From positions 192,001 to 256,000 of the forward strand of contig JBEGVH010000006.1 in the NCBI GenBank assembly GCA_041178425.1: a DNA stretch of 64,000 nucleotides. Reading direction: 5' to 3'. The DNA comes from Pseudomonadota bacterium (lineage in GTDB: Bacteria; Bdellovibrionota; Bdellovibrionia; Bdellovibrionales; Bdellovibrionaceae). Positions 26,446 through 49,089 of this stretch are shown here, piece after piece (the first letter of the stretch is position 1; every line of letters starts with the position of its first letter). A program made the translations under genes and the position numbers. The notes under the pieces were generated by a model. That model had not been told where the DNA came from. It did not search any database and worked only from the letters and a program-made list of their open reading frames with translations.

Positions 26446-26447
26446 TC

Positions 26448-28022: not shown

Positions 28023-28029
28023 TAAACCA

Positions 28030-28600: not shown

Positions 28601-28684
28601 AGTTTTATTATAAATCGAACTTGAACTTCCTGATTCATTTGTTAGACTTTTTTAATATTTAATTTGAATAAGAAGGTAGTAGCA

Positions 28685-29428: not shown

Positions 29429-29512
29429 AAATAATCTTTAAATAATTTCAAAATTATTGCTGGTAATTTAAAGATTAGGATAAATCCATGGAATTATCTT
29501 AAGAAAATTCAT

Positions 29513-29992: not shown

Positions 29993-30139
29993 CTTAAATC
30001 CTTTTAAAAATATTTTTTAAAAGATAACATTAAATTTAAGTGGTTTATCTATTTAATTACTTATAGGGTAAAGATTACACTTTATTGCTTTGATACCCTT
30101 CATTTTATGAAATTTTTCTGAAATGAAATCTGCAAGCGA

Positions 30140-31201: not shown

Positions 31202-31325
31202 GGGAAAAGAATAGCAAGATTTACAATAGTCGAAGCACGGATTGAAAAAGCTTCATAGGTGAAAAAAATATGTCTAACGTTTTGACAGTTAAAATAAAAA
31301 GGGAGGATTTCTCCTCCCCCAAATC

Positions 31326-31415
31326 TTAAAGATACTTCCTTAACGACTCTAAAATTATTGTTAGTAATTTTAGAATCAGGATTAGTAGCTTTAATGATTT
31401 TAAAACCTTGAGAAT
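31326..31415 (-). pseudogene. Second TisB-like peptide gene with ATT in place of ATG (xLKVLKSLKLLILILKLLTIILESLRKYL)
   Basis: Codon-for-codon alignment with 28030-28119, same leader hairpins and terminator (unit ~31292-31463); no adjacent sRNA. Confidence 0.6.
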
Positions 31416-31460
31416 CCTTGCCTCCAAAAGATCGCCTTCATTGGCGCGGAAGCTCTCGGC

Positions 31461-31961
31461 TTGAAAAAATATCCCTCAATAGAATTCAGCATTGATCTAA
31501 ATCCAGCTAAAATTGATCTAAAATCAGAAGGGATTGATATTGCCATTAGACCTGGAATTCAAAAAGATTCTGGTCTATTTATTCGGAAATTAGATGAAAT
31601 TCAACCCGCGCTTTTTGCCTCATTAGAATATATAAAAAAAAATGGTCGGCCTAAAAATTATGAAGATTTGAAAAAACATAAATTAATTTCAACCAAGATA
31701 ATAAATCTCGATGGCGAATCTTATAAGCCTGCCATTCTTGCTAATAGTATGTCTTTTGTAAAACAAGTCACCCTTGAGAGTGCAGCCATAGGATGCTTGG
31801 CCGAAGAATTTATTATGAATGAAAAAAAATCAGGTAAACTTGTTCGCTTATTTCCAGAAAAAAATTTACCTAAATCTCCCATCTATTTGGTTTTTACCAA
31901 TAAAAAATTAGCCAAGCGGGTTTCTTTACTGGTTCAAGAAATAATTGAATTTAAGGAATAA
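31461..31961 (+). pseudogene. 5'-truncated LysR-type regulator (substrate-binding domain only)
   Basis: KYPSIEFSI...IDLKSEGIDIAIR...LFASLEYIKKNGRP; no HTH; starts at the edge of the toxin repeat and ends inside the 146-bp repeat. Confidence 0.8.
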
Positions 31962-32099
31962 GCAATTCAAATGGTTTTTGGCTTTCCCAAAGCCCCCCCG
32001 AAAGCCGGTCGCAAAAGGCCTCCAGAGGGAGCGTTTAGCCTCTGGATCCAGTTTTTTTGTGGGGCAAATATTATGTTGAGGTGGCGGAAGGGCTAATCA
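31954..32099 (+). repeat. 146-bp direct repeat, copy 2
   Basis: Matches 25023-25168. Confidence 0.95.
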
Positions 32100-33916: not shown

Positions 33917-34666
33917 TTACACTGCATTATCGAGCAGTGCGAATTCTTCGAGTAATTGGAGAATAATATGGTGAACCCTTCGCCTTTGAACATCAACACC
34001 CTGATCGGCGGTAAAAAACAAATCAGTAATACCCTTTAACTCAAGGCGATCGCGTCGATGTTTTTCAAGCGACTCCCCTTTTTTTACAATTTTTATAAAT
34101 CGATTATTTTTCTTAAAGTGCAGATAAATATCTTGTTCTGCCACCTCATCGGGGGAAATGGTTTCAACAGAACGACTCGCAAAACGATCATCGTCGGCCA
34201 TCTTTTCTAAGCGAAAGTAGCCGTAAAAAGCACAGCCGTGAGATGTTTCCTGCATGAAACAATAATTGCTCATTTTTACTAAAAAATTTAACTCAAGATG
34301 AGTGGGATCATTCATCTGAAAGTTTTCGATAAAATATAGTTTGGCTCCTGAAGATTTGATCACATTTTGCAGCTGCTTTAGTAGCGGTTCAAAAATCGGC
34401 TTAAGATTATTTTTTGGAAAATCAGAACCAACCAAAATCAAGCTGGAAAAGTTTTGGGTTTCAATTACGATACCTGTAATATTATAAATCTCGTGCGTAT
34501 CTTCGAAAGAAACGTGCTCACCCGCTTCAAAACGCTCAGTGCAGACCATCTGTAAGGCAAGCAAAGAAACGTCGTCGCGCATCTGAGTTTGTCGACCTTG
34601 ACTCGAACTACCTTTGCCTCTGACGTAGATTTTCTCTGAGTAACCTTTTTTGGATTTTCCCGTCAT
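33917..34666 (-). CDS. Hypothetical cytoplasmic protein
   Basis: 249-aa ORF filling the gap; no motif recognised with confidence. Confidence 0.6.
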   Translation of the reverse strand: MTGKSKKGYSEKIYVRGKGSSSQGRQTQMRDDVSLLALQMVCTERFEAGEHVSFEDTHEIYNITGIVIETQNFSSLILVGSDFPKNNLKPIFEPLLKQLQNVIKSSGAKLYFIENFQMNDPTHLELNFLVKMSNYCFMQETSHGCAFYGYFRLEKMADDDRFASRSVETISPDEVAEQDIYLHFKKNNRFIKIVKKGESLEKHRRDRLELKGITDLFFTADQGVDVQRRRVHHIILQLLEEFALLDNAV

Positions 34667-34780
34667 ACCCTAATAACACTAGGATTTACAGAATTCTTCA
34701 ACCAATTACCCCTCAGAGGGCCATCAAAAACCCACCAAGGTCTAGATGGCGAGAAAGTCTTGTATCGAAAAAGGGCGGAC

Positions 34781-35935
34781 TTAGCCCTTAACCGAAATTT
34801 TAGATGCGGCTTTGATGGCCAAGCTCTTCGCTTTCTCAACGGTTGAGCTTCTTGATAAAACCACAGCCATTCGTCGAAATGGCCTCATCGTTGGCTTACC
34901 AAAAATGCGCACATCGACATCTTTTAATTCGAGCGCTTTGTCGACTCCAGAGAATTTTGGTTGTTTCTCTGACTCTTTGGTTGCAAGAACAACAGCCGAT
35001 GCACTAGGGCCGTAATACTTTATGTCTGTGATCGGCAATCCTAAAACCGCACGAGCATGAAGATCAAATTCAGATAGGTTTTGCGAGATCAAAGTCACCA
35101 TTCCCGTATCGTGAGGACGCGGTGATAACTCAGAGAAATAAACATCATTTTTTGTAATAAAAAATTCGACACCAAATATTCCCGCTCCGCCAAGACGATC
35201 GGTCATTTTTTTTGCCATTTTTTGAGCCTTTTTTAATAACTCAGGCTTTATTTTTGCTGGCATCCAAGACTCGCGATAATCACCTCGTTCTTGCCGATGA
35301 CCAATCGGGGCAACAAACAGGGTTTTCCCTTTTCGTTGCTTCACCGTTAGTAAAGTGATCTCGAATTCAAAGGGAATAAACTCTTCAACGATTACTTTTT
35401 TCTTATCTCCGCGCATCCCTTCACAAGCATAATTCCAGGCCGTTTTTATTTGCTTTGACGATTTGATGATCGATTGCCCTTTGCCCGAGGATGACATGAC
35501 CGGTTTAATCACACAAGGGTAACCAATCTTGTCTGCGGCAGCGATCAACTCGACTTCACTCTGAGCATAAGCGTAGTTTGCCGTCTTGAGTTTAAGTTCA
35601 TGACTAGCTACATCACGAATAGCATCCCGATTCATTGTAAGATGGGCCGCTTCTGCTGTTGGAATAATGGTGAAGCCTTTGTTTTCAAGCTCCAGGAGTT
35701 TCTCTGTGCGAATCGCCTCAATCTCAGGAACAATCAAATCAGGTTTATGCTTTTTTACTAATCGATCAATTTCGTCCCCATCAAGCATGTCGATTACTTC
35801 ATAGGTATCCGCCACCTGCATGGCAGGAGCCCCTTCGTATCGATCAACGGCGATGACATATTGGCCTAATCTTTTTGCTGAAATCACAAATTCTTTTCCT
35901 AATTCACCTGAGCCCAAAAGCATAATTTTTTTCAT
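34781..35935 (-). CDS. purT: Formate-dependent phosphoribosylglycinamide formyltransferase
   Basis: [34 protein letters not shown] and [10 protein letters not shown] motifs. Confidence 0.97.
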
Positions 35936-36588
35936 AAACTTTCTCCTGTCATTAAGATCGCACGAACGGGGGAGGCTTCTGCCCCTTCGAGCTTCAAGGG
36001 GAGCGCAATAAGCTGGTACCGACCTGACGGAACTCTTTCTAAAGTTAATCCCTCAAGAATGGCGATTCGATTTTTATAGAAGGTCTGGTGGGCGTCGAGC
36101 GTTTTACTGTTGGAATGATCCATCGACGGGGTATCAATTCCGATCAATACAACACCCTTTTGTGAAAGCCAATCGATTGTTTCAACACTCAAGTGAGTGA
36201 ATTCGTCTTGCCAGACACTCAGATCGCGAAGAGAGTGGCTTTTAAATAAAATGCGAGGTGCTGAAATGGTCACACCAGAAAGATCAGAAGGATTTACAGC
36301 TCCACGGCAATGAGTCACATCAATCACTTGGCAGTCGCCAAGATAGGTTTCGAGTGAGCATTGATCAATACTCACTCCGTCTTGATGGTAGTGCGATGGA
36401 GCATCAGCATGAGCTCCAATATGAAGAGTTGTTTGAATTGAGCTAAGACTAAGATGGTTCCCATTTTTAAAATCTAGTGAAATTCTTTTTTCGAAAGGAA
36501 CATCACCAGGAAAAACTGCCAGCCTATTATTAATCGGAGGAGAAATATCAAAAATCTGCCGCCTGAACTTTGGAGATTGTATCGTCAA
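35932..36588 (-). CDS. kynB: Kynurenine formamidase (cyclase family)
   Basis: [29 protein letters not shown] and ASPVRA motifs; kynA nearby. Confidence 0.88.
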
Positions 36589-37832
36589 CCTAACAACTCC
36601 TCAACTCTCGGTTTAATTTTCTCCATGAACACTTTCATATTCTTTTTTATCTGCTCATTATTGTGATTATTAAAATCAAACCAAAGCATGAGTCTATCAT
36701 CTCGATGATATTTTTTGACGATCGCCTGTGCCACTTCCTCGGGGTTTCCTGCAATAGAATTCTCAACGGCGCCCGCTACTTTTTTTGGATCGAGTGTTTT
36801 TTCCATGGCGACCCAATAATTTTCCCAAGCCTTTTTTGAATGTTCTCGAGCCTTCGCTGACTGTTCTTGAGGCGACAGACCTTCGCTGTCATCGACAAAA
36901 ATCAGAGCTGTGCGAGGCATGAGAGACCGACTCCAAGCGCCACCCTGAGGATGAAAATCACGAGTCATGCGCCGGTGAGTTTCCTCTATGACATCGGCAG
37001 GGGTGATCGAAAGATTAAAAACTCCCGTAGGCAGAATTTCGTTGGCCATTCGCTGGGTTTCTGGATCATGAGACCCAATAGTCAGCCGCAACTTATCGAG
37101 TGGCGCTTCAAAAGGGATGATTCCTACCTTATCAAAGACAAAAAACGGAAGATGAAGGATTTTTTCTCCATCCCAACGGCGCCAATCTTCTTTGGCCAAA
37201 CCTTGCACTTTCTCCCAGGTGTTTTGATCTCGAAAGTCTTCTCGACGAAGATAAATGGGGCCAATCTCCTTGCTCGCAAACTTATCGCCGCGCAAGGCCT
37301 TGAGCATAATGAGGGTCGCTTCTTGAAAAACCTTGTTTTTAACTACATCCCATGCAGCTTCATCCACTAAATCTCGCGGACGAATTCCATAAGCATGATA
37401 AGAAAACGGAAAACGACCAGCAGCAAAACCAAATTCTAAAAGGCGCTTTTCGTTCGGGCGGAGCGCATGGAGCGAAAGAAAGGTTTTTACAGCTTCAGCA
37501 TGAGCCAGAGGGCCACCATTAGATAAAATATTTCGAATGGCCGATCCAACATTGAGATTTTTGGTTTGACTAAAAATAATATGAGCAAGCTGGAGTATGT
37601 CAGTATTAAGTCCAATTTCCCCTTTGAAGTGTGGTATCACAGCGCCAGGGTTTTCTTTCTGAACCTGACAAGACAAATGAGTTTCCGCAAGCCAGGCGGT
37701 ACCAAAACCGAGTTGATCGGCCAACTGCACTTGATCGAAAAAGTTTTCCCACATGGTTCTCTCTGTTGGGAGATAACCATCCACCTCTGTTTGGCAAATC
37801 GAAAAAAAGATGTCGTATTTCATGGCAGACAT
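36585..37832 (-). CDS. Luciferase-like (LLM class) flavin-dependent monooxygenase
   Basis: LADQLGFGTAWLAETH, TKNLNVGSAI, LEFGFAAG and AGNPEEVA motifs; stop overlaps the kynB start. Confidence 0.85.
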   Translation of the reverse strand: MSAMKYDIFFSICQTEVDGYLPTERTMWENFFDQVQLADQLGFGTAWLAETHLSCQVQKENPGAVIPHFKGEIGLNTDILQLAHIIFSQTKNLNVGSAIRNILSNGGPLAHAEAVKTFLSLHALRPNEKRLLEFGFAAGRFPFSYHAYGIRPRDLVDEAAWDVVKNKVFQEATLIMLKALRGDKFASKEIGPIYLRREDFRDQNTWEKVQGLAKEDWRRWDGEKILHLPFFVFDKVGIIPFEAPLDKLRLTIGSHDPETQRMANEILPTGVFNLSITPADVIEETHRRMTRDFHPQGGAWSRSLMPRTALIFVDDSEGLSPQEQSAKAREHSKKAWENYWVAMEKTLDPKKVAGAVENSIAGNPEEVAQAIVKKYHRDDRLMLWFDFNNHNNEQIKKNMKVFMEKIKPRVEELLG

Positions 37833-37981
37833 TAGAAACAAAAGAACTTTAATTGTCAGTCTTTTCTCACCGCGCAATTAAATAAATATCGATGACTCAA
37901 GGAAATAGCTAAAAAGAGAAAACTTGGCTCAGGACGAATATCTCCCCACCGCTCAGATCTGCAGTAGGGAGAGTGAAAACT

Positions 37982-39361
37982 TTAATCTTCGTAGTCGATG
38001 GGCTCAAGAGGGGGTGTGTTTAATGGCGCAACCGTGTAGTCCGGAACAATGACACCCGACATTCCTGACGCTGGCAAAGATTTAGGATGGGCATACTTGT
38101 AAAATCGCCCTGTATCGACCAAGAAATGCCCATTAAACTCGCTACCGTAAATGCGATAGATATTGCCAAGAGCTCCTGTGCCAGCGCCAATAAAGCCTGG
38201 CGAAAAACGATATTTTCTCACAGTCGGATATTGGTCAATATTGTAAACACCTTCTTCTAGCCATTCAGAGGCCGGAACACCTCGGTCTAAGACTGCCTGA
38301 CGCTCGATCGTAGCGGCTCTTGAATCATTGATGGGGCTCGACTTGGTAAGAATATAGAAAAAAGGAACGCGCTGTTTCTGTGATTTATAGCTATACAGCG
38401 AAGGCTGCCAAACCGCTTCTCTGGCATAAACACGAATAATCGGCGTGCCCGCTGCTATAATATGGCGAAGGAAAGCAACGGCCCCATTTTCAAGGCGAGT
38501 GCACCCTGAGCTACGAGCATCATTAATGCTGCTTAAGAAAAGATTACGTGTAACATCAATAAACTTAGGGCCATCAGAACCCCAACCGGCTGTTCCATGA
38601 ATCCATTGGTAGTTGGCCTTGGGTCCTAGAATGGCAGCGAACCATCCGAAGGCTCCTCTCATTTGACCATTTTTATTGGGCATCACATCGCTATCAAACC
38701 AGTCACTAAAATCAGAGCCTGGAGGTGGCACTGGTGGATAGTCTTTAGAGTACCAAGCTGGATAATGGCCTTCACCATCTTCGTGAAATTTATCCCAGTA
38801 CTGGATTTTATTTACGCCCAGATGTGTGTACCATTCCTCTGGAGAGAAAAGGCTATTCTTTCTTCGACCCACCACCATGTCGGATTCAAAAACCAAGCGA
38901 TGAGGGCATCCCGCATACTTTGTGCACTTTTCATAAACTCGAGTCACTTCAGTCGCAACGTTTTGCACCACAAAGTATTGAGTCGAAATATTATTCTGTG
39001 AATTCTTTGCTGATAAATACTCAGCGCTCACATAGAGGCGATCGTAGGCGTTAAGTGACACTCCCCTGCCCGAAACTACTTTCACTTCTACAAAGGGATT
39101 TGCGTCGTCGAGCAAACTAACAATCGAGACGAGATCATTCCGGTGCAGACGCCCAATGGCCTCTTCTTCTTTAACAGGAGCAAGACGAACTTTAATGGTA
39201 TCAGCATCCACAAAGTAATTCAGACCAACTTTTAATTTTGCCTTTGCCGATGGTACGACTGGTTTAGAGTCCGAAAATAAAAAAGACTGTGCCATGGAAA
39301 CTTCGCCCACCGCGAGAATGCTGGCACAAAGAAAACCCACCAAAAAAGACCACTGAATCAT
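37982..39361 (-). CDS. Secreted L,D-transpeptidase with SH3-like N-terminal domain
   Basis: VVG, GAFGW, WIHGT and SSGCTRL motifs; IKVRLAP...YVSAEYL SH3-like segment. Confidence 0.8.
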   Translation of the reverse strand: MIQWSFLVGFLCASILAVGEVSMAQSFLFSDSKPVVPSAKAKLKVGLNYFVDADTIKVRLAPVKEEEAIGRLHRNDLVSIVSLLDDANPFVEVKVVSGRGVSLNAYDRLYVSAEYLSAKNSQNNISTQYFVVQNVATEVTRVYEKCTKYAGCPHRLVFESDMVVGRRKNSLFSPEEWYTHLGVNKIQYWDKFHEDGEGHYPAWYSKDYPPVPPPGSDFSDWFDSDVMPNKNGQMRGAFGWFAAILGPKANYQWIHGTAGWGSDGPKFIDVTRNLFLSSINDARSSGCTRLENGAVAFLRHIIAAGTPIIRVYAREAVWQPSLYSYKSQKQRVPFFYILTKSSPINDSRAATIERQAVLDRGVPASEWLEEGVYNIDQYPTVRKYRFSPGFIGAGTGALGNIYRIYGSEFNGHFLVDTGRFYKYAHPKSLPASGMSGVIVPDYTVAPLNTPPLEPIDYED

Positions 39362-39591
39362 AGATAAACCCCTTTAAACAAAAGTTCGGCTCAACGCTGA
39401 ATCTGGTGGGTGTGACTAAAAAAAGGTAGTTTTTCAATGCAGAGTTGTAAAATTACCAGAACTTAAGTTGCCCTAGACATCGTATTAGCTCGCCTTCTGA
39501 TTAATTTTTAGGCATTCCATGAAGTTTAATTAAGCTGACACTCCCGTCATCGAAAGCTGAGATAGGCGCTTCTTTTGAGGAGGAGGCCTAA

Positions 39592-40461
39592 ATGAAAGAA
39601 GAAAATCTGAATCCCGAAATATCCCATGTCAGTGATACGGCTCTTTGGGTGGCGACTTATCGAGCCGAAGAAACAAAGCGAAAAGATGCCCTTTTTAAAG
39701 ACCCTTTAGCAGAAATCTTAGCCGGAGAAAGAGGCAAAAGAATTGCCAAGAAAATGCGGGCAACAAAGTACCTCTCGTGGTCGGTCATCATTCGTACAGC
39801 CACCATTGACGACCTGATTGAAGAAGCACTCAGCGAGGGCGTTGATACCGTTGTCAATCTCGGTGCGGGTTTAGATACTCGTCCGTATCGCATGAACCTT
39901 AATCGGAATCTCCTTTGGTTCGAGGCGGATTTTCCAGACATCATTGATCTCAAAAACGATCGTCTCAAAAACGAAAAACCCAACTGTCAAATCGAGCGAA
40001 GAGCCATTGATTTAACCAATCCAGAAGCACGACAAGCTTTTTTTCAAACCGTCAATGCTCAATGTCGCAAGGCCTTGATTATCACCGAAGGTGTTATTCC
40101 CTATCTCTCGAATGAGGACGTGGCAGCCCTCGCAAAAGATCTTCGCCAACACAATCATTTTAAATTTTGGATTCTTGAATATTTTCCCTCTGAACTTCCG
40201 CTTTCTCGTCCATTCAAAAAACTGCAATCGAAACTTACGAAGGCACCGCTTATCTTCAAACCCAAAGATTGGAACGTTTTTTTTAATCAACTCGGATGGA
40301 GAACCAAAGACCTTCGTTTTCTCAATGAGGAAGCCGAGAAATTACATCGCCCCTTTCCTCTCTCATGGTGGCAAAAATTAGGACGATTTTTTCTGCGCAA
40401 AAAGACCAAAGAAAAGCTAAGGCAAGCTCTCGCCTATGCGCTGATTGAACCAAATCTTTGA
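39592..40461 (+). CDS. SAM-dependent methyltransferase (LCM/TIGR00027-like)
   Basis: VSDTALWVATYRA, VVNLGAGLDTRPYR and ITEGVIPYL motifs. Confidence 0.9.
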   Translation: MKEENLNPEISHVSDTALWVATYRAEETKRKDALFKDPLAEILAGERGKRIAKKMRATKYLSWSVIIRTATIDDLIEEALSEGVDTVVNLGAGLDTRPYRMNLNRNLLWFEADFPDIIDLKNDRLKNEKPNCQIERRAIDLTNPEARQAFFQTVNAQCRKALIITEGVIPYLSNEDVAALAKDLRQHNHFKFWILEYFPSELPLSRPFKKLQSKLTKAPLIFKPKDWNVFFNQLGWRTKDLRFLNEEAEKLHRPFPLSWWQKLGRFFLRKKTKEKLRQALAYALIEPNL

Positions 40462-40549
40462 AACCCTGCATATAAGCGAGATAAATTCTCTCGATTTACC
40501 CATGAAAGTATGATTGCATCGCCAAGTCTGTTTTCATGGAGGGGGAATT

Positions 40550-41335
40550 ATGTTGTTGGATCTTACCAACAAAAGGGCTTTAGTGTGTGGTGCATCCCAG
40601 GGGATTGGCGAAGCGACAGCTCATGCTCTCGCCGATATGGGCGCCGAAGTCATTCTTATTGCTCGAACCGGTGATAAACTCGAGGCCATTCGACAAAAAC
40701 TCTCCAATGCTAAAAATCAAAAACACCAAGCGCTGGCCTTCGATCTCACGTCGCGCGACCTCTTAACCAATCACCTTAATGATTGTCTTGCTAAGGGGCC
40801 CATCAGTATCGTTATCAATAATGCTGGCGGCCCTAAGGCGGGCTCCTTGCTTGATGCTAGCGACGAAGATTTTCTCAGTGGCTTTCATGCGCACATTCTT
40901 GCGGCCTCCCTTATTGCAAAAAAACTAGCTCCGGGAATGAAAGAGCAAAAGTTCGGTCGCTTTATCAATATAATATCAACATCGGTAAAAGCACCTATTG
41001 CCAATCTCGGGGTTTCAAACACCATCAGAGGTGCTATGGCGAATTGGGCTAAATCGATGGCCACCGAACTGGCTCCCTACGGCATAACCGTCAATAATGT
41101 GCTCCCTGGTTACACCGAAACCCCACGCTTAGAAGCTCTGGCTCAGGCGGCCGCCCAAAGACAAAACAAAACCGCCGATGAAATTAAGCAAACCTGGAAG
41201 GCTGCGACACCCGCAGGTCGCTTTGCCTCCCCTGCCGAAGTTGCCGACGCCATCGCTTTTTTAGCCAGCCCCTCGGCCGGCTTCATCAATGGCATCAACC
41301 TCCCTGTTGATGGAGGTCGAACACCATGTCTTTAA
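40550..41335 (+). CDS. SDR oxidoreductase of the Trp-catabolic operon (atypical SxxxR active site)
   Basis: GASQGIG, NNAGGP, LGVSNTIR and VDGGRT motifs; overlaps the next gene. Confidence 0.88.
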   Translation: MLLDLTNKRALVCGASQGIGEATAHALADMGAEVILIARTGDKLEAIRQKLSNAKNQKHQALAFDLTSRDLLTNHLNDCLAKGPISIVINNAGGPKAGSLLDASDEDFLSGFHAHILAASLIAKKLAPGMKEQKFGRFINIISTSVKAPIANLGVSNTIRGAMANWAKSMATELAPYGITVNNVLPGYTETPRLEALAQAAAQRQNKTADEIKQTWKAATPAGRFASPAEVADAIAFLASPSAGFINGINLPVDGGRTPCL

Positions 41336-42774
41336 TCGAAATTAAAAATTTTATTGGTGGCGAGTTTTGTTCGGCTAAATCGAATACGACGATTGAAAAT
41401 TTTGAACCCGCTACAGGCCGTGTTTACTCCACCATTCCGCGCTCCCATACCGCCGATGTTAATGCTGCCGTTCAAGCGGCAAAAAAAGCATTTCCGGCAT
41501 GGTCTTCAACATCGGCCGAAGAGCGGGCCCAATATCTCAATAAAATAGCTGATGGTATTGAAAAACGTCTTCTTCAATTTGCTAGGGCAGAATCTCGCGA
41601 CCAAGGGAAGCCGGTATGGTTGGCCGAGTCCATGGATATCCCTCGCGCGGCCCATAATTTTCGTTTTTTTGCTGGTCAGATTCTTTATCAAAAAGATGAA
41701 GCTCACGAAATCTCGGGCAAAGCTTATAATTTCACCCTGCGAAAACCGGTTGGTGTTGCGGGCCTTATCTCTCCATGGAATTTACCCCTTTATCTTTTAA
41801 CTTGGAAAATTGCTCCTGCCATTGCCTTTGGTAACACGGTGGTTTGCAAACCCTCTGAACTGACTCCAATGACGGCCTTCTTGCTCTGTGAAATTTTTCA
41901 AGACGTTGGCCTCCCGCCAGGAGTCGTTAATATTCTCTTTGGCTATGGAGCCGAAGCGGGTGAACCAATTGTTCAGCACCCAGAGGTGCCCCTAATTAGT
42001 TTCACCGGAGGAACCACAACAGGTAAGCGGCTAAGTGCCAGCGCCGCTCCATTGATCAAAAAACTATCGCTTGAGCTGGGTGGAAAAAACGCCAATATGA
42101 TTTTTGCCGATTGTCATCTTGATGAAGCCATCGAAACGTCTCTGCGTTCGAGCTTTCTGAACCAAGGTGAAATCTGTCTCTGTGGATCTCGCCTCTTTGT
42201 GGAGCAATCCATATACACAACTTTTGTTGAGCGCTTTGTTAGCAAAGTAAAAAACCTTAAGGTTGGCGACCCTAAAAATGCTGACCACTTTATTGGTGCT
42301 CTCGTCAGTAAAGATCACCTCGAGAAGGTGCGATCGTATGTGACCTTGGCTCAGCAAGAGGGTGGCAAAATTGAAACTGGATTAGAACCAATTCCCCTCG
42401 ATAGCGATCACCAAAATGGATACTTTATGCGTCCAACAGTGATCACGGGTCTTTCTTCTCATTGTCGTGTCATGCAAGAAGAAATTTTTGGGCCTGTGGT
42501 CACCATTGCTCCTTTTTCCACAGAAGAAGAAGTCATCGCTATGGCCAACTCAGTTGAGTATGGATTGGCCGCCAGTCTTTGGACAAAAGACATTCAAAGG
42601 GTTCATCGTATGGCACGCGCCTTAGAGGTTGGAACACTTTGGGTGAACACTTGGATGATGCGTGATTTAAGAGTGCCCTTTGGTGGAATGAAAATGTCGG
42701 GAGTAGGCCGCGAAGGTGGTGTGCATTCTTTAGAGTTTTTCACAGAAGCCACTAACGTTTGCGTAAAATACTAA
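41326..42774 (+). CDS. amnC: 2-aminomuconate/2-hydroxymuconate semialdehyde dehydrogenase
   Basis: ISPWNLPLYLLTWKIAPA, LELGGKN, NQGEICLCGSR, EEIFGPV and RDLRVPFGG (ALDH8/HMSADH type). Confidence 0.88.
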   Translation: MSLIEIKNFIGGEFCSAKSNTTIENFEPATGRVYSTIPRSHTADVNAAVQAAKKAFPAWSSTSAEERAQYLNKIADGIEKRLLQFARAESRDQGKPVWLAESMDIPRAAHNFRFFAGQILYQKDEAHEISGKAYNFTLRKPVGVAGLISPWNLPLYLLTWKIAPAIAFGNTVVCKPSELTPMTAFLLCEIFQDVGLPPGVVNILFGYGAEAGEPIVQHPEVPLISFTGGTTTGKRLSASAAPLIKKLSLELGGKNANMIFADCHLDEAIETSLRSSFLNQGEICLCGSRLFVEQSIYTTFVERFVSKVKNLKVGDPKNADHFIGALVSKDHLEKVRSYVTLAQQEGGKIETGLEPIPLDSDHQNGYFMRPTVITGLSSHCRVMQEEIFGPVVTIAPFSTEEEVIAMANSVEYGLAASLWTKDIQRVHRMARALEVGTLWVNTWMMRDLRVPFGGMKMSGVGREGGVHSLEFFTEATNVCVKY

Positions 42775-42825
42775 AACTTTTTTTAAACAAAGCACTACAA
42801 AAGTAAAATTTAGGACAGGTGAATT

Positions 42826-43770
42826 ATGGCAACAACGAGCAAAAAAAACACAGGCAAAGGTGCGATCGTCGCGGGATGCTTGGCTCCCCATCCACCCCAC
42901 TTGGTCTATGCAGAAAACCCACCTCAAAATGAACCGCGTTCCGAGTGTGGCTGGGAAACTCTTCGCTGGGCCTATGAATCCATGCGAAACGATTTAAGCC
43001 AAATTGAACACGATGTCCTCGTGATCTTTTCTCCTCATTGGAGAACCTATGTTGGCACTCATATTCTTGCAACCCCCCATTTAAAATCTTTGTCTGTGGA
43101 TCCTATCTTTCCAAATCTCTTTCGCTACCACTACGACATCAACGTCGATGTAGATCTTGCCAACACAATTCATGACGTTTGTCAGAGCAAAAATATTCCT
43201 ACCAAACTTATGACTAACCCTGATTTTCGCGTAGACTATGGCACCATCGTCACAGGACACCTTACGAATCCAAAATGGGACAAACCCATCGTCACCCTTT
43301 CAACTAATTGTGTGGCATCTTACTACAACCTTGATCGCATGCAGGCTCTCATGATGGAGCTTGGCGCCGCAACAAAAGAAGCCATCGAAAAAAGTGGCAA
43401 AAAAGCCATTCTTCTTGCAAGCCACTCTCTCTCTCATCGCCATTTTACCGTCGAAAATGAAATTCCCGAAGACATGAGCAAAGAGCACATCACCAATCAC
43501 AGCCTCTACTTGTGGGACATGAAAATGATTAAACTCATGAAAGAAGGGCGATCTCGCGAGATGATTGACCTAATTCCTGACTTCACAGAGCAAACTATTG
43601 CTGAGTCAGATTCAGGAGGTCTGACTTGGATGATGAAGGCCATGGACTTTCCGACCTACCCAGCAAAAGTTCACGGTTACGGAACAGTGATTGGCACTGG
43701 TAATGCCGTTGCCCATTGGGCACCACCAACAACAACAAAACCTCAGCCTCTCGCAGAGAAAGGAATCTAA
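42826..43770 (+). CDS. amnB: 2-aminophenol 1,6-dioxygenase, beta (catalytic) subunit
   Basis: LAPHPPHLVYAENPPQNEPRS..GWE.LRWAYE, SPHW, SVDPIFPN, FRVDYGT, PEDMSKE and GYGTVIGTGNAV, closely matching AmnB/CnbCb as recalled. Confidence 0.92.
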   Translation: MATTSKKNTGKGAIVAGCLAPHPPHLVYAENPPQNEPRSECGWETLRWAYESMRNDLSQIEHDVLVIFSPHWRTYVGTHILATPHLKSLSVDPIFPNLFRYHYDINVDVDLANTIHDVCQSKNIPTKLMTNPDFRVDYGTIVTGHLTNPKWDKPIVTLSTNCVASYYNLDRMQALMMELGAATKEAIEKSGKKAILLASHSLSHRHFTVENEIPEDMSKEHITNHSLYLWDMKMIKLMKEGRSREMIDLIPDFTEQTIAESDSGGLTWMMKAMDFPTYPAKVHGYGTVIGTGNAVAHWAPPTTTKPQPLAEKGI

Positions 43771-43772
43771 GG

Positions 43773-44771
43773 ATGGCCGCTTCTCATTCACAAAACCCCA
43801 TTATTAAAGGTTATGTTTTACCGGGCCTCATTCAGCCCCTTCTCACTCCGGATGCAAACCCTGGATACCGAAAAGTGAGAAACGCTTTTGAACAAGTGCG
43901 GGCTGAAATTGAAAACACCGATGCTGACCTGATTCTCATTTACAGCACCCTTTGGCCCTCAATTCTTGGGCATCAGATTCAGGCCCTTCCAGAGCCTGAA
44001 TGGACACTCGTTGAAGAAGAATTTCACGATCTAGGTTCTGTGCCCTACAAGCTCCGTATCGATAGTGAATTTGCCGAGTGTTACAATAAACACGCCCTCC
44101 AGAGAGGATTGCAAAGTCGAACTATTGCTTATCATGGTTTTCCTATTGATAGTGGATCAATCGTGGCTTTGCAGCTGATCAACCCAAACAATCGGCTTCC
44201 GGCCGTTATTGTTTCGAGCAATATTTACGCTGATCGTGCTGAGACCGTGGTGCTCGCTAAAGCCGCCGTATCTGCTCTTAAAGAGCAAGGCAAGCGCGCC
44301 GTGGCGGTGATCATCTCGACTTTATCAAATCGCCTCCATACGAATTATATCGATCCAAAAGATGATTGCATCAATTCTCTCAAAGACCAGGAATGGAACT
44401 TGAAAATTCTTGAGTTCCTCGAAAAAGGGCGCCTCGAAGATGTTGCTCAACTCTCTCGACAAATTCACCGCGAAGCGCGAGTCAAAAAAGTTTCCAACTT
44501 TAAGCCTTTCTGGTGGCTCTCTTCTGTGATGGGGGCCCACAATCGCTACACCGGTAAAGTTTTTGAATATCAACCTATTTATGGAACAGGATGCGCCGTC
44601 GTTGGTTTAACTCCCGCTCCCCATGCTTCTCGTGACCTTGAATTCGATGAGGATGCTCCAGAACATTACACGGGCGAACGGAATGTTCTTAGCGCCAGCG
44701 GGGAATCGATGGCCGATTTTTCCTCTCAACAAGTGTTATGTAACACAGATGATGAGGGCATAGAGCAATGA
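43773..44771 (+). CDS. amnA: 2-aminophenol 1,6-dioxygenase, alpha subunit, with acidic C-terminal extension
   Basis: IYSTLW, YHGFPIDSG, SSNIY, DQEWNLKIL and PIYGTGCAVV motifs. Confidence 0.85.
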   Translation: MAASHSQNPIIKGYVLPGLIQPLLTPDANPGYRKVRNAFEQVRAEIENTDADLILIYSTLWPSILGHQIQALPEPEWTLVEEEFHDLGSVPYKLRIDSEFAECYNKHALQRGLQSRTIAYHGFPIDSGSIVALQLINPNNRLPAVIVSSNIYADRAETVVLAKAAVSALKEQGKRAVAVIISTLSNRLHTNYIDPKDDCINSLKDQEWNLKILEFLEKGRLEDVAQLSRQIHREARVKKVSNFKPFWWLSSVMGAHNRYTGKVFEYQPIYGTGCAVVGLTPAPHASRDLEFDEDAPEHYTGERNVLSASGESMADFSSQQVLCNTDDEGIEQ

Positions 44772-45862
44772 AAAATCCAGATCTCAAAATCTCAGATGTT
44801 TACCCCTCCAGTCCGTTTGGAGAAAAAATTCCAGGAATTCCCACTGGCCGGGACGTCGAATGGCAGCCACTCATCGATTACCGTCGTAATGGTGTGAGTG
44901 AAAACACCATTCACGGAGCCATTGCTTGGTACAGCGGCGATGAATTGATTCACTCGTTCGGAGGAAACGTTCTTTGTTATGGTCGCAGCATGATGAAACT
45001 TTTTTATATGAAAGTGTTCAGCCAAGAACTTGCAAACACTACCACTTGGCAACAAAAAGCCATCAGCGTTTCAAGTCATAATGGGGCCGCCGAACACATC
45101 GAGGCAGCGCAATCCCTATTGACTGAGAGTGAATGGGGACTCATGCAAACCCCACTTGATCTACCCTTAGTACAATTTGGCCGACAGGTGCGACGCCCTC
45201 GCCGCTGGTACAATAACTCCTCTGGGCACCACGCAGCGATTCTTCTTGGTTGCCGAATGAAGGGCTGGAATCGCGCGGGCTACACACTGCCTAATCACGA
45301 AGTTTATAAAGAATACGTTCAAGTTGTTCGTCGCTATTTAGGTGCCGACTGGAAACCACTCCGTATCGCCCGCGATGGTGATGGCCTGCCAACGGTAGCA
45401 ATGACCGTCAACGAACTGGCTCGTTGTTATGCGGGCCTCGCTAAACATCGCGAACAAGATTGGGTCTGGGAAAGCATGGTTCGCCATCCAGACTTAGTGG
45501 GTGGTTTTAATCGTCTTGATACAACAGTGATAAAGTCTTGCCATGGGCAAGTGATTGCCAAAGAGGGCGCCGACGGGCTTCTTGGAATGGCGATCTCGCA
45601 TCCTGACTATCCCAACGGTCTTGGCGTAGTGATTAAGATTGCTCACGGATGGAACCCACAAGCCACCTGGTACATTGCAAGAGGTATTTTAGGAGTGCTA
45701 GGCTTTGAGCTGCGCAATCCTTATCCCTTACGCCGACAAAAAGCCTTTTTGGTTCCGCAAATTGTGCCTGATAAATTTGTAAAAAAACTCGAAACAATTC
45801 CAACGTGGGACGAATGGGATCCTGATCACGATCGTTGGTACATGGGAGATTTAAATGTCTGA
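44768..45862 (+). CDS. Asparaginase II (Rhizobium AnsA/ReAV class 3)-family hydrolase with altered metal site
   Basis: RSMMK, SSHNG...H, NNSSGHH, DGDGLP, AKEGADG and IKIAHG motifs. Confidence 0.82.
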   Translation: MKNPDLKISDVYPSSPFGEKIPGIPTGRDVEWQPLIDYRRNGVSENTIHGAIAWYSGDELIHSFGGNVLCYGRSMMKLFYMKVFSQELANTTTWQQKAISVSSHNGAAEHIEAAQSLLTESEWGLMQTPLDLPLVQFGRQVRRPRRWYNNSSGHHAAILLGCRMKGWNRAGYTLPNHEVYKEYVQVVRRYLGADWKPLRIARDGDGLPTVAMTVNELARCYAGLAKHREQDWVWESMVRHPDLVGGFNRLDTTVIKSCHGQVIAKEGADGLLGMAISHPDYPNGLGVVIKIAHGWNPQATWYIARGILGVLGFELRNPYPLRRQKAFLVPQIVPDKFVKKLETIPTWDEWDPDHDRWYMGDLNV

Positions 45863-46283
45863 AACTCAATCTGAAAAAATCAACACCAATAAAGCACCAG
45901 AACCTGTCGGAGCTTATCCTCATGCTCGCCGTTTTGGCGACCTTCTTTTTTTGTCGGGCGTCGGCCCTCGCAAACCTGGAACAAAAAAAATTCCAGGGGT
46001 TGAACTCGACGATAATGGAGCTATCGCATCTTATGACGTGGTTACTCAAACAGAGTCAGTGATTGAAAATATTCGCATCATTTTAGAAGCCTCCGGTAGC
46101 TCTCTCGATAAAATTATCGATGTGCAGGTTTTTCTCACCAACATGAAAGCTGATTTTAAGGCCTTTAACGAGGTTTACGCAAAACACTTTACTTCTATTG
46201 GTGCTACTCGCACAACGATTGAGGTAGGAGCTCTACCAACACCCATCGCTGTTGAATTTAAAGTGATTGCCGCGGCTAAATAA
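45855..46283 (+). CDS. amnD: RidA-family 2-aminomuconate deaminase
   Basis: APEPVGAYPHARR.GDLLFLSGVGPR, FNEVY and RTTIEV..LPTPIAVEFK; operon context. Confidence 0.8.
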   Translation: MSETQSEKINTNKAPEPVGAYPHARRFGDLLFLSGVGPRKPGTKKIPGVELDDNGAIASYDVVTQTESVIENIRIILEASGSSLDKIIDVQVFLTNMKADFKAFNEVYAKHFTSIGATRTTIEVGALPTPIAVEFKVIAAAK

Positions 46284-46305
46284 TTTTTATCGAGGAGTTT
46301 ATTCA

Positions 46306-47418
46306 ATGATTAAAAATCAAAAACCTGTTTATTATCCTGATTACCTTCAATTATTTAAACTCTTGGATAGTCAGCATCCAAAAAGTCTTGAAGCCGGCAA
46401 AGAGGCTCACGATGAAATGCTCTTTATCGTTGTTCACCAGGCCTATGAACTTTGGTTTAAGCAGATTCTTCATGAACTAAAGCCGGTGCTCACCATTTTC
46501 AACAAAGAGCGCGTTGAAGAGCATGAACTTGGGTTTATCTTGGCGCGCTTCGAGCGGGTGATTAAAATTCAATCCCTGTTTCAGTCTCAGTTAGAAGTTC
46601 TCGAAACCATGACTCCTATGGATTTTCTTGAGTTCCGCGATCTCTTAATTCCAGCTTCTGGCTTTCAAAGCGTTCAGTTCAAAACGATTGAAACAGTGAT
46701 GGGCCTAACAACTGCCACTCGGTACACCGTCGACCGCGAGTCTTTCTTGGGCCGCCTCAGCGCCGGAGATAAAAAACAAATCGAAGACCTTGAAAAACAT
46801 GACTCTCTCTTTAAATTAATGGAGCGATGGCTAATTCGACTCCCCTTCACCGAAAAAACCAGCTTTGTTTTTTGGCAACAGTACGAAGCGGCTGTTGATG
46901 CGATGCTCGCAAAGGATGAAGCCGTCATTAATGACAACCCTCATACGAGCGATTTCGAAAAAAATATTCAAAAGGATTATCTTCAAACCACAAAACGAAC
47001 CTTTCAGAGTCTTTTCGATGATACAATTCACGATGAACTGATTTCAAAGGGTCAACGACGACTTGCTCGAAAGGCCATTCTCAATGCCTTGTTTATCTTT
47101 CTCTACCGCGACGAGCCGCTGATGCACCTGCCGTACAAGCTTTTAAATGCCCTCATTGATATTGATGAAAATTTCACCAGCTGGCGCCATCGCCATGCCA
47201 TGATGGCTCACCGAATGCTCGGAACAAAAATTGGAACCGGCGGAACGTCAGGGCAGGAATACCTAAAAAAGGCAGCAGACCAAAACCGAGTTTATCTCGA
47301 TCTTTTTAATCTATCGACCTTCATTATTCCAAAGTCAGCACTTCCGGTGCTTCCTCCTTCTTTAAGGCAAGAACTCAATTTTCACTATGCCTCAAAAACA
47401 GAAGGGATGAACCATTGA
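46306..47418 (+). CDS. kynA: Tryptophan 2,3-dioxygenase
   Basis: YPDYLQL, HDEMLFIVVHQAYELWFKQ, PASGFQSVQF and GTGGTSG..YL motifs. Confidence 0.96.
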   Translation: MIKNQKPVYYPDYLQLFKLLDSQHPKSLEAGKEAHDEMLFIVVHQAYELWFKQILHELKPVLTIFNKERVEEHELGFILARFERVIKIQSLFQSQLEVLETMTPMDFLEFRDLLIPASGFQSVQFKTIETVMGLTTATRYTVDRESFLGRLSAGDKKQIEDLEKHDSLFKLMERWLIRLPFTEKTSFVFWQQYEAAVDAMLAKDEAVINDNPHTSDFEKNIQKDYLQTTKRTFQSLFDDTIHDELISKGQRRLARKAILNALFIFLYRDEPLMHLPYKLLNALIDIDENFTSWRHRHAMMAHRMLGTKIGTGGTSGQEYLKKAADQNRVYLDLFNLSTFIIPKSALPVLPPSLRQELNFHYASKTEGMNH

Positions 47419-47553
47419 GGTGACCCCGTCGTAAAAATGGAGAGAGGGCAATATTTATTTCACCACCTCTCCTTGATTATTGTAGCAGTTTTACTTGCCC
47501 ATTAATGCCCCTTTCTGTAGTTTGCCGATTCGAAATTCAAAGGGGGCCTGGTC

Positions 47554-48267
47554 ATGAAAGCATTTGCTTTATCTTTTATCCTTCAATTAGCTATTAGCTG
47601 TCCTATTTTTGCAGAAACGTCCAAAGACAACCTTCCTGACCTTGTGTCTCCCGATGAGCTTCAAGAAGAACTTCAATTACCCGAAGCCAAAACCCTTGTT
47701 TTTGATGGTGAATTTGAGACCTTAGGCATCGAAGAATGGTCCGACATGAATGGCATCGACCTCACCCAGCATTTTGAGGTCGTAGTTGTTGTAAACAAAG
47801 CGAAAAGCGGACCAGAAGCTCAAAAAGCCCAAGTTTATTTGAGCGGCCGCCACTACAAAACCTTCACGGTTTCGACCGGTCGCGAAAAACTCGAGCTCGC
47901 TCCTAGTGGTAAAGTCTACCGCTCCGTCACACCCCAGGGCTGGTTTCGCCCCATTTACTTTAGCCCGAATCACTTTTCTGAAACTTGGAAAGCCCCAATG
48001 CCATGGGCCGTTTTTTTCAACGGCGGCATTGCTCTTCATGCCACCACTCGAAGCCACTATGACGAACTTGGCCAACGAGCCTCGGGCGGCTGCGTTCGCT
48101 TGCACCACGATGATGCAAAAGAACTTTATCATCTGATAAAAAACGCAGGAAAAGGGGCTGTACCAAAATTTAAACAATCAGGTAGAATCATCCGTGACTC
48201 TATGGGAAGAATTAAATTAGAGCATAATTACAATACTTTGATCATTGTTGAGAATTCTCAAGGATAG
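47554..48267 (+). CDS. Secreted L,D-transpeptidase (YkuD)
   Basis: VSTG, TPQG and MPWAVFFNGGIALHAT...ASGGCVRL motifs. Confidence 0.9.
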   Translation: MKAFALSFILQLAISCPIFAETSKDNLPDLVSPDELQEELQLPEAKTLVFDGEFETLGIEEWSDMNGIDLTQHFEVVVVVNKAKSGPEAQKAQVYLSGRHYKTFTVSTGREKLELAPSGKVYRSVTPQGWFRPIYFSPNHFSETWKAPMPWAVFFNGGIALHATTRSHYDELGQRASGGCVRLHHDDAKELYHLIKNAGKGAVPKFKQSGRIIRDSMGRIKLEHNYNTLIIVENSQG

Positions 48268-48282
48268 ATTCAAAGTTCATAC

Positions 48283-49089
48283 TTACTGATAAATATCTCC
48301 GAAATGCGACCGACAATGTTCTTCGAGGGCAGGGTATTCATAAACGACCTTGCCTTCAAACCCCGACGCCGAATAGACACAACGGCAGTTCTCATCGAGT
48401 TTGATTTCAGTTAATTGCGGCAGGGCTGTCGAAGGCGCAATCAATCCAGCGATTGCATTTCCATCCACATTAGGTGTGTTGATCTTGTAAATATTAGAAT
48501 CGTTCAAGTGACTCAATTCTGTTGTTGTTAGGTCTTGATTCGAGGGAGTGCAGGAAGCATTTGAGCGCAAAGCAAGAATATCTTTGGCTCGAAACTCCCT
48601 TGCACATGTGTAGTCGCTGGTTCGCTGAACCGTTTCTAATACTTTCGTTTCGCAATAAAATGAAAACTCCTCACAGAGAAATCGATTTCGGATCAACTGA
48701 GTGCTGACCGTTGCCTCACAACTCAATCCGTCCGCTTGGGGACTCATGAGTATCTCATGTTCTACGTCGCTATAAAGTAACTCTGACTCCCTAACAATGG
48801 CAGGATAACTCACCTGCTGGGCCGTTGGAACAATCGTGGGTGTGGGCGTTGCCGTGGGAGTGGGCGTTGGTGTTACGGTGGGAGTGACTGTTGGACTCGG
48901 AGTGACCGTGGGCGTCGGCGTTGCTGTCGGTGTTTCTGTGGGTTCGGGAGTGGGAGTTCCCGTTCCAATCGGCTCGGGTGTGCTCAATGGGATCGGTTTA
49001 GAGGGAAGATCTCTAAAAAAAACATTCTGAGAACACGCCATGTTCGTCAGCGACAAGAGAATGACTGTTAAAAATGAAAGTTGAACCAT
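48283..49089 (-). CDS. Hypothetical lipoprotein with Pro/Thr linker
   Basis: Signal ending MAC, (TP)n tract at ~48835-48985, Cys-rich C-domain; GGGCCT-CACTT-TTGCT sigma-54-like site at 49127-49142. Confidence 0.7.

Follow-up and report, generated by a model that had tools for sequence, protein, structure and literature searches.

A candidate kynureninase-independent pathway for tryptophan degradation through 2-aminophenol in a Bdellovibrio-like bacterium

How might a bacterium that carries genes for the first two steps of tryptophan breakdown go on to degrade kynurenine when no kynureninase can be found in its genome? Kynurenine has two known aerobic fates, both of which proceed via kynureninase, an enzyme dependent on pyridoxal phosphate (PLP). 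The question is raised by a 64,000-nucleotide stretch of DNA (the window; positions 192,001 to 256,000 of contig JBEGVH010000006.1, assembly GCA_041178425.1) from a Bdellovibrio-like bacterium. Here, genes for tryptophan 2,3-dioxygenase (TDO) and arylformamidase (KynB) are found with homologs of the 2-aminophenol enzymes AmnA, AmnB, and AmnC and with two divergent enzymes, a luciferase-like flavin monooxygenase (LLM) and an Asparaginase_II-like serine hydrolase. An earlier reading made from the letters alone (the sequence-only reading) had proposed that these two enzymes connect kynurenine to 2-aminophenol. Having followed up that proposal computationally, we favor the view that the two gene units encode one kynureninase-independent tryptophan pathway that runs via a Baeyer-Villiger LLM and the hydrolase, with a probability of roughly 0.55. 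Considerably more likely than the full chemistry of this route is its outline, a kynureninase-free tryptophan route through Amn-type cleavage that needs both the LLM and the asparaginase-like enzyme.

The locus and the proposed route

The genes of the two units are listed here by position in the window.

35932-36588, minus strand: kynB, arylformamidase (N-formylkynurenine to kynurenine); TIGR03035 at 218 bits (cut-off 223), PF04199
36585-37823, minus strand: LLM, divergent; PF00296 at 33 bits in the N-terminal part only, no NCBIfam match
40514-41335, plus strand: classical short-chain dehydrogenase/reductase (SDR); PF13561/PF00106
41326-42774, plus strand: aldehyde dehydrogenase (ALDH), amnC-like 2-aminomuconate 6-semialdehyde dehydrogenase; PF00171 at 564 bits, TIGR03216 at 580 bits (cut-off of 693 not reached)
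42826-43770, plus strand: amnB-like, catalytic beta subunit of 2-aminophenol 1,6-dioxygenase; PF02900 (LigB-type)
43773-44771, plus strand: amnA-like, alpha subunit of 2-aminophenol 1,6-dioxygenase; PF02900 at 41 bits
44768-45862, plus strand: Asparaginase_II-like (class-3-asparaginase-like) serine hydrolase, divergent; PF06089 at 156 bits, no NCBIfam match
45855-46283, plus strand: RidA family, 2-aminomuconate deaminase-like; PF01042 at 90 bits
46267-47418, plus strand: TDO, long type; PF03301 at 336 bits over the full profile

SDR-amnC-amnB-amnA-asparaginase-like-RidA-TDO is one tightly coupled operon, its seven plus-strand genes overlapping their neighbors or lying at most 51 nt apart, with the TDO gene overlapping the RidA gene. 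On the opposite strand, kynB overlaps the LLM stop, and the LLM and SDR genes are 2.6 to 2.7 kb apart. The sequence-only reading had described the same operon, along with an LLM gene overlapping kynB 2.7 kb away; scans of open reading frames (ORFs) against Pfam and NCBIfam found every gene in place, the overlap being 4 nt. Two starts call for comment. The LLM ORF extends to 37877, with aligned homologs beginning at Met 37823, the likely start, and the amnA-like ORF opens at 43716 (TTG), with an ATG at 43773 that abuts the amnB-like stop. This arrangement is not an assembly artifact, because independent metagenome contigs reproduce it: one (run X3, record 9) holds window positions 34700 to 48300 in a single piece with 120 differences and zero gaps, and another, from run X2, covers 44160 to 48296, from the amnA-like gene through TDO.

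By sequence comparison, the amn-like genes are close relatives of characterized 2-aminophenol pathway enzymes, in line with the assignments that had been made from the letters. Against the PDB, the amnB-like protein matches 8ihg_A at E 1.3e-104 and 3vsg_B at E 3e-104 over 288 residues, and the amnA-like protein matches 7txy_A (E 7e-41) and 3vsg_A (E 1e-37). For the ALDH, the top seven matches are without exception 2-aminomuconate 6-semialdehyde dehydrogenases (E 3e-141 to 6e-138), and the best match of the RidA-family protein is a 2-aminomuconate deaminase of equal length (6izh, 142 amino acids [aa], E 1.3e-25). The SDR matches unnamed SDRs only; it probably processes a downstream product, possibly by reducing a ring-cleavage product.

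In the pathway that we propose, TDO would open the indole ring and KynB would remove formate to yield kynurenine, as their family assignments suggest. Supplied with reduced flavin mononucleotide (FMN) from elsewhere and O2, the LLM would attack the aryl ketone of kynurenine as a flavin peroxide and insert oxygen between ring and carbonyl, with migration of the aryl (2-aminophenyl) group, to give the beta-aspartyl ester of 2-aminophenol. Attack on carbonyls is established for flavin-peroxide LLMs, and in Baeyer-Villiger reactions electron-rich aryl groups migrate preferentially, ahead of primary alkyl groups. The ester may then rearrange from O to N to form N4-(2-hydroxyphenyl)asparagine. The asparaginase-II-like hydrolase would pass through a beta-aspartyl-enzyme and release L-aspartate and 2-aminophenol, the latter leaving in place of ammonia. 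From there, the AmnBA-like dioxygenase would convert 2-aminophenol to 2-aminomuconate semialdehyde, the AmnC-like dehydrogenase would produce 2-aminomuconate, and the RidA-type deaminase would yield 4-oxalocrotonate and ammonia.

Conservation of the module and exclusion of kynureninase

The host genome (3.06 Mb in 43 contigs, rated 100% complete) was searched for the canonical pathway. The kynureninase model TIGR01814 had no match there, while the same search was positive in 90 of 401 genomes of the phylum. A profile search for 3-hydroxyanthranilate 3,4-dioxygenase (3-HAO) found none in the host genome; this search was silent in the standard controls but, when repeated on five relatives that carry kynU, gave a match in four of them, a few kb from kynU. 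For kynurenine 3-monooxygenase (KMO), searched with FAD_binding_3 and not with a KMO-specific model, the host genome gives three weak N-terminal matches only (22 to 27 bits, profile positions 2 to 43). The absence of kynU, nbaC, and a KMO-like gene that the sequence-only reading had noted in the window therefore extends to the whole genome. For nbaD, the outcome was mixed: one candidate of the 2-amino-3-carboxymuconate 6-semialdehyde decarboxylase (ACMSD) type exists, a single Amidohydro_2 gene, though it is located beside dnaX and has no aromatic context. We considered this gene as a piece of a hidden canonical pathway and rejected it on account of its neighbor.

To characterize conservation, we built an LLM profile from eleven members, which found 405 encoding loci among contigs of one genome per species. 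The best 80 were taken with flanks of up to 10 kb per side, and their six-frame ORFs were scored against the window's own proteins, with a match defined as at least 100 bits; 38 loci have at least 6 kb on both sides. Counts of genes near the LLM were as follows.

ALDH: 65/80 loci, 34/38 well-flanked loci
Asparaginase-like: 60/80 loci, 34/38 well-flanked loci
amnB-like: 53/80 loci, 30/38 well-flanked loci
amnA-like: 48/80 loci, 29/38 well-flanked loci
SDR: 38/80 loci, 19/38 well-flanked loci
kynB: 23/80 loci, 14/38 well-flanked loci
RidA: 15/80 loci, 11/38 well-flanked loci
TDO: 6/80 loci, 3/38 well-flanked loci

Module genes share the strand of the LLM gene, which is followed by the asparaginase-like gene in 46 loci and by the ALDH gene in 22. 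The loci come from Bdellovibrionota, Acidobacteriota, Gammaproteobacteria, and one Planctomycetota metagenome-assembled genome (MAG), and gene order varies with lineage. It is SDR-LLM-ALDH-amnB-amnA-Asn-RidA in Bdellovibrionota (Asn being the asparaginase-like gene), (TDO)-(SDR)-LLM-Asn-ALDH-amnB-amnA-kynB in Oligoflexus, the Planctomycetota MAG, and Acidobacteriota, and LLM-Asn-ALDH-amnB-amnA-(kynB) in Thermoanaerobaculia. The SDR gene lies directly upstream of the LLM gene in 38 of the 80 loci, all of the Bdellovibrionota type or similar, and is absent from Thermoanaerobaculia modules. Because dozens of loci in several phyla carry it, the module is far beyond chance. These results support a single conserved module in which amnBA/amnC, kynB, and TDO are joined by the LLM and asparaginase-like genes.

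In 16 of the 80 loci, 109 additional ORFs within modules were picked, and 56 of these were scanned against Pfam. They encode membrane, porin, or secreted proteins specific to particular lineages, or are spurious high-GC frames, and no further core enzyme was seen among them. A conserved ORF of 433 to 449 aa lies between the ALDH and amnB genes of Thermoanaerobaculia modules (L056:14700-15998 and L070:13626-14972). It has no Pfam match; its translations have a multi-pass membrane look, and it may be a pathway transporter.

Co-occurrence across whole genomes was assessed in an evenly drawn sample of 401 genomes from the host's own phylum, with the LLM called at E 1e-30 or better. The LLM was found in 58 genomes (41 at 47 to 100% identity, 17 at 31 to 37%), TDO in 275, and kynureninase in 90. 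TDO was present in all 58 LLM genomes compared to 217 of the 343 without the LLM. Kynureninase, in contrast, was present in 0/58 versus 90/343. The exclusion extends to genera: among 203, of which 29 have the LLM and 53 have kynU, not one has both. It is also visible within families, where the two genes are complementary; in family f6, for example, genus g26 has the LLM in 6/6 genomes and genus g32 has kynU in 3/3.

We documented a similar pattern in a second phylum. Among 241 genomes of the class Thermoanaerobaculia, the LLM was found in 52 and kynU in 80 with an overlap of 0 (kynU in 0/52 versus 80/189), and TDO was found in 50/52 LLM genomes versus 53/189 others. This sample includes four genomes flagged as unpublished, G580 and G584 (LLM and TDO) and G409 and G509 (kynU and TDO); when these are left out, the LLM is found in 50/237, kynU in 78, the overlap is again 0, and TDO is found in 48/50 versus 51/187. 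Fisher values for LLM co-occurrence, with kinship ignored, range from 2e-7 to 3e-20. The co-occurrence of the LLM and asparaginase-like genes with amnAB and TDO (kynA) and the anticorrelation with kynU had both been predicted from the letters of the window; the former is borne out by the 80 loci and the two genome samples, and the latter holds in both phyla.

The TDO match of LLM-positive Thermoanaerobaculia is divergent and short, encoded by ORFs of roughly 235 to 330 aa (E 1e-13 to 1e-20). It covers profile positions of about 12 to 135 only, is encoded away from the module, and is rare in LLM-negative genomes.

The two divergent enzymes and the order of steps

In the Baeyer-Villiger route, the asparaginase-like enzyme would act before ring cleavage, and two sets of genomes are informative here. 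The first is an LLM subgroup of 31 to 37% identity, in which all 4 fetched loci carry a single ORF of 511 to 566 codons that joins an N-terminal Asparaginase_II domain to a C-terminal arylformamidase (Cyclase) domain (L085:10634-12232; L087:7782-9317, minus strand; L086:16191-17822; L088:14879-16576). This fusion gene directly follows the LLM gene in L085 and L087 and lies 4 to 6 kb downstream in L086 and L088. TDO is found at the fusion loci; at two of the four it is accompanied by amnB, amnA, RidA, ALDH, and an FAA_hydrolase gene, which in L085 lies between the ALDH and LLM genes. The second set consists of four genomes that have an upper module only: Alteromonas sp. a30, a cultured isolate (L035), an uncultured gammaproteobacterium (L020), and two members of the window's own order (G208, L089; G265, L090). 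The LLM, kynB, and TDO are present in 4/4 of these genomes, and the asparaginase-like gene is beside the LLM gene in 3/4 and non-adjacent in L090; in G208, the genes form an operon, LLM-Asn-kynB-TDO. The four genomes lack an amnB-like gene, any member of PF02900 (the LigB family), and kynureninase. Because of the KynB fusion and of these upper-module genomes without the LigB family, we place the hydrolase between TDO/KynB and ring cleavage; the upper-module genomes put the LLM, too, ahead of ring cleavage.

We propose that the asparaginase-like protein is a beta-aspartyl-(2-aminophenol) hydrolase. It aligns with the class 3 asparaginase ReAIV at E 4e-15, and R73, S74, K77, S103, and K265 (an Arg-Ser-x-x-Lys motif, a second Ser, and a second Lys) are invariant in 14 module-linked homologs. 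These residues are equivalent to Arg47, Ser48, Lys51, Ser80, and Lys263 of ReAV, a numbering derived from motifs shared with ReAIV. In ReAV, activity is lost when any of the five is mutated; Ser48 acts as nucleophile in a mechanism that passes through a beta-acyl-enzyme, and the alpha-carboxylate of the substrate is held by Arg47 (PMC12292245). A C-terminal extension of about 50 residues is conserved in most module-linked members. The host genome also encodes a canonical Asparaginase_II paralog outside the window (G000, contig C10:148278-149258; L091:8279-9259), situated between OPT oligopeptide transporter and MFS transporter genes. This paralog matches Pfam at 352 bits and ReAIV at E 6e-71, keeps the Cys/Lys/Cys zinc ligands, and is 23% identical to the operon copy. 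Since the genome has this separate canonical enzyme, the operon copy is not the housekeeping one; given also its catabolic operon context, we rejected the idea that it is a plain L-asparaginase.

The LLM is proposed to be a kynurenine Baeyer-Villiger oxygenase on the basis of pathway logic. Its family has more than 3,000 close homologs, the best 120 of which are all at least 59% identical. It is also compact and isolated, with 274 matches at E 1e-3 among 1.84 billion cluster representatives. The AlphaFold2 model (predicted local distance difference test 92.6, predicted template-modeling [TM] score 0.90) has the TIM-barrel LLM fold. Foldseek returned 155 PDB matches at E 1e-3 or better, and all those listed have the LLM fold. 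The structural neighbors include luciferases, RslO1, SsuD, RutA, F420 enzymes, and the type II Baeyer-Villiger enzyme 3,6-diketocamphane monooxygenase (4uwm, rank 15), so that both FMN and F420 enzymes are among them. The reaction type was not narrowed by the Atlas search or by the fold search, and prediction of a complex between the LLM and the asparaginase-like protein gave no verdict (score 0.00). Like type II Baeyer-Villiger monooxygenases (BVMOs), the LLM has the TIM-barrel fold and lacks a reductase domain; reduced flavin would have to come from a separate enzyme. It differs from them in having some 80 residues more than the matched LLMs and in its marginal sequence links, the LLM profile reaching E 3e-4 at best against PDB sequences; its substrate would also be an amino acid. 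4-Hydroxyacetophenone monooxygenase is a BVMO of aryl ketones, and its conversion of hydroxyacetophenone to an aryl acetate resembles the proposed aryl migration. A 1,501-aa protein (P0125) that combines the N-terminal part of an LLM with GATase and ApbE flavin transferase domains is a possible gene-call artifact and was not used.

Despite this evidence, a number of observations weigh against the pathway as we have drawn it. The Baeyer-Villiger insertion, the O-to-N shift, and the products aspartate and 2-aminophenol are all steps that we infer. The fold cannot name the reaction of the LLM, because many LLM subtypes match equally: all neighbors have TM scores of 0.5 to 0.63 and identities of 12 to 19%, and Baeyer-Villiger types are not separated from hydroxylases, luciferases, SsuD/RutA, or F420 enzymes. 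The sequence-only reading had required a flavin reductase from elsewhere. None was found among the scanned module ORFs or the sister-subgroup loci, and the genome offers only one FMN_red gene in an unrelated context and no PF01613 (HpaC-type) reductase. In the hydrolase, the class 3 zinc ligands Cys135, Lys138, and Cys189 are replaced by Ser/His/Asp. The window protein shares this replacement with its two closest relatives, and since other module-linked members keep Cys...Cys (Cys, then Lys/Glu/Gln, then Cys), the loss is lineage specific and no marker of function. The neighbors of the upper-module loci (L020, L035, L089, and L090) were scanned for an aminophenol-handling enzyme, and nothing convincing was found, which leaves these genomes with no recognized 2-aminophenol sink.

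Other objections come from the surveys and from the lower pathway. Eight of the 80 loci have the LLM without any module gene in reach, two same-genus genomes (G200, G373; L005, L006) have TDO outside the operon on another contig, and a TDO match is missing from two of the 52 LLM-positive Thermoanaerobaculia. Because LLM-positive genomes cluster in few lineages, the Fisher values treat them as more independent than they are. TDO is also common without the LLM or kynU (in genus g4, TDO 26/26, LLM 0, and kynU 0 among mostly complete genomes), so its presence alone says little. Finally, 4-oxalocrotonate decarboxylase, 2-oxopent-4-enoate hydratase, aldolase, and acetaldehyde dehydrogenase are absent from the window, the last two not having been searched for genome-wide. 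Three FAA_hydrolase-type proteins (4-oxalocrotonate decarboxylase/hydratase) from L085 and L058 found nothing in the host genome by tblastn at E 1e-3, which leaves the lower pathway past 2-aminomuconate unexplained in this host.

It is also possible that the same enzymes act in another sequence or on other chemistry. If the LLM oxidized N-formylkynurenine, the hydrolase would release aspartate and 2-formamidophenol, and KynB would come last, deformylating the latter to 2-aminophenol. Consecutive hydrolase steps of this kind would suit both the asparaginase-like/KynB fusion in 4/4 loci and the gene order LLM, asparaginase-like, kynB seen in many loci, and with the amine formylated there would be no need for an O-to-N shift. 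However, fused domains need not be consecutive steps, the window KynB scores as an ordinary arylformamidase (218 bits), and its gene is coupled to that of the LLM and not to that of the hydrolase. The computed evidence does not separate this order from the one that we favor; we regard it as unlikely. The sequence-only reading had itself offered another possibility, in which the LLM substitutes for KMO. The resulting 3-hydroxykynurenine is an ortho-aminophenol that the AmnBA-like enzyme would open, after which the asparaginase-like enzyme would cleave off the aspartyl side chain. LLMs do include hydroxylases, and a KMO-like gene was not found in the host, but this scheme requires C-C hydrolysis on a Ser-Lys amidohydrolase scaffold, and the amnB-like protein has authentic 2-aminophenol dioxygenases among its matches (E 1e-104). 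Moreover, the fusion with KynB ties the hydrolase to steps before ring cleavage, and in three genomes without the LigB family the LLM and asparaginase-like genes are still neighbors, kynB and TDO being present as well (the fourth has the LLM, kynB, and TDO). We therefore favor the Baeyer-Villiger route over this scheme, which we consider improbable. As for the earlier choice between them, the order of steps has gained support from the fusion and the upper-module genomes, while the chemistry is still deduced.

Two further explanations would remove 2-aminophenol or tryptophan from the picture. Were the alkyl group to migrate, the LLM would produce O-anthraniloyl-serine, and the hydrolase would release anthranilate and serine, a functional substitute for kynureninase. 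This would explain the strict exclusion with kynU, and upper-module genomes would need no aminophenol sink. Yet primary alkyl groups are poorer migrating groups than aryl groups, the LLM is beside amnBA/amnC in 30/38 well-flanked loci even though anthranilate is no Amn substrate, and the asparaginase scaffold with its carboxylate-binding Arg has been kept even though the acyl group would not be beta-aspartyl. Such a route strikes us as highly improbable. Barely credible, in our judgment, is the absence of any tryptophan link, with an aminophenol or nitroaromatic operon placed by chance beside TDO and kynB and with the LLM and asparaginase unrelated. The setting in which Amn enzymes were characterized, degraders of 2-aminophenol and nitroaromatics, agrees with this explanation, as does the location of TDO elsewhere in same-genus genomes. 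Against it, kynB and TDO are repeatedly members of the module across several phyla, the TDO being of two different types, TDO is present in 58/58 and 50/52 LLM genomes, kynU exclusion is complete, KynB is fused to the hydrolase, and the host is a 3-Mb Bdellovibrio-like bacterium of freshwater and estuarine metagenomes.

Relation to known systems and neighboring features

The downstream half of the operon resembles the amn/cnb/nbz clusters for 2-aminophenol meta-cleavage in Pseudomonas sp. AP-3, Comamonas sp. CNB-1, and Burkholderia xenovorans LB400, with AmnB, AmnA, AmnC, and RidA-type homologs and an amnC-amnB-amnA-...-deaminase order in one operon. Amn enzymes are reported from degraders of 2-aminophenol or nitroaromatics (PMC3790839). 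Unlike those clusters, the window operon has no hydroxylaminobenzene mutase or nitroreductase as a feeder, is headed by an SDR gene, and is joined to TDO, KynB, the LLM, and the asparaginase-like gene, while 4-oxalocrotonate decarboxylase/hydratase homologs were not found by tblastn. The hosts differ as well, since this one is a small predatory-type bacterium and not a pollutant degrader. With canonical kynurenine pathways, the proposed route would share the TDO and KynB steps and the chemistry from 2-aminomuconate semialdehyde onward, and a canonical cluster of TDO, kynU, and 3-HAO is present in same-family relatives of the host. The host itself lacks kynureninase, 3-HAO, and a KMO-like gene, and the module and kynU are mutually exclusive in the 642 sampled genomes. 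The route would be PLP independent, would yield aspartate instead of alanine, and would bypass the quinolinate branch point. The hydrolase, in turn, shares with the Rhizobium etli class 3 asparaginases ReAV and ReAIV (PF06089) the catalytic residues and, as proposed, the beta-aspartyl acyl group. It is set apart from them by its divergence (E 4e-15 and 156 bits, versus E 6e-71 and 352 bits for the canonical paralog), its Ser/His/Asp zinc site, its C-terminal extension, its occurrence in a catabolic operon or KynB fusion, and a leaving group that would be 2-aminophenol, not ammonia.

We found no description of this route in open-access papers or bioRxiv; a paper on an ARO microcompartment of Actinobacteria (PMC10470539) never mentions kynurenine, tryptophan, luciferase, or asparaginase. 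We regard the pathway as a catabolic one composed of known superfamilies, with two proposed new activities. Newly observed here are the counts of kynU exclusion and TDO inclusion in two phyla, the asparaginase-like/KynB fusion, the stand-alone upper module, including that of a cultured Alteromonas, the canonical asparaginase paralog in the same genome, and the identification of the Amn part via solved structures. Whether an LLM "kynurenine oxygenase" and a hydrolase derived from class 3 asparaginases replace kynureninase in a third major tryptophan route, giving aspartate and 2-aminophenol, is to us an evenly balanced call. Such a route may span Bdellovibrionota, Acidobacteriota, the Planctomycetota MAG, and Gammaproteobacteria, and by Atlas taxa, it may include marine archaea.

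If the pathway is real, two new enzyme activities would be added: one that cleaves the aryl ketone of an amino acid by Baeyer-Villiger oxidation and one that arose by repurposing a class 3 asparaginase. Annotation of tryptophan catabolism in metagenomes would change as well; the LLM marks 58/401 genomes of the phylum and 52/241 of Thermoanaerobaculia. The "xenobiotic" AmnAB would gain a natural substrate, which would explain an origin of the 2-aminophenol pathway that predates industrial nitroaromatics. In predatory and marine bacteria, 2-aminophenol, which is reactive and bioactive, would belong to ordinary metabolism. That bacteria with only the upper module (for example, Alteromonas sp. a30) release it for aminophenoxazinone (questiomycin-type) antibiotics is speculation. 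With this cultured carrier and simple in vitro assays, the question is directly testable.

Two further features adjoin the genes discussed above.

34781-35935, minus strand: purT, from the ORF listing; overlaps kynB by 4 nt
37982-40461: spacer between LLM and SDR, with genes for a YkuD-like protein (459 aa, weak PF03734) and an LCM-type S-adenosylmethionine-dependent methyltransferase

The spacer looks like an insertion, because both halves of the locus are adjacent and divergent in the same-genus loci L005 and L006. The YkuD-like protein has, on reading of its translation, an N-terminus that resembles a signal peptide. Successive 4-nt overlaps link purT, kynB, and the LLM gene, and purT is coupled to the other two in the same order in L005 and L006. 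A functional reason for this coupling is not evident; that formate from KynB feeds PurT would be speculation. A promoter and terminator scan of positions 34500 to 48500 gave counts no different from those of shuffled sequence, and no RNA data set was listed for the operon. The host occurs in freshwater and estuarine metagenomes, and the names of its homologs place it among the Pseudobdellovibrionaceae/Bdellovibrionaceae. Elsewhere in the window, positions 26000 to 32000 are low in GC (0.35 to 0.38 versus about 0.44) and include a 353-aa ORF without a Pfam match and a 166-aa ORF that matches the LysR substrate-binding domain only and may be a truncated regulator.

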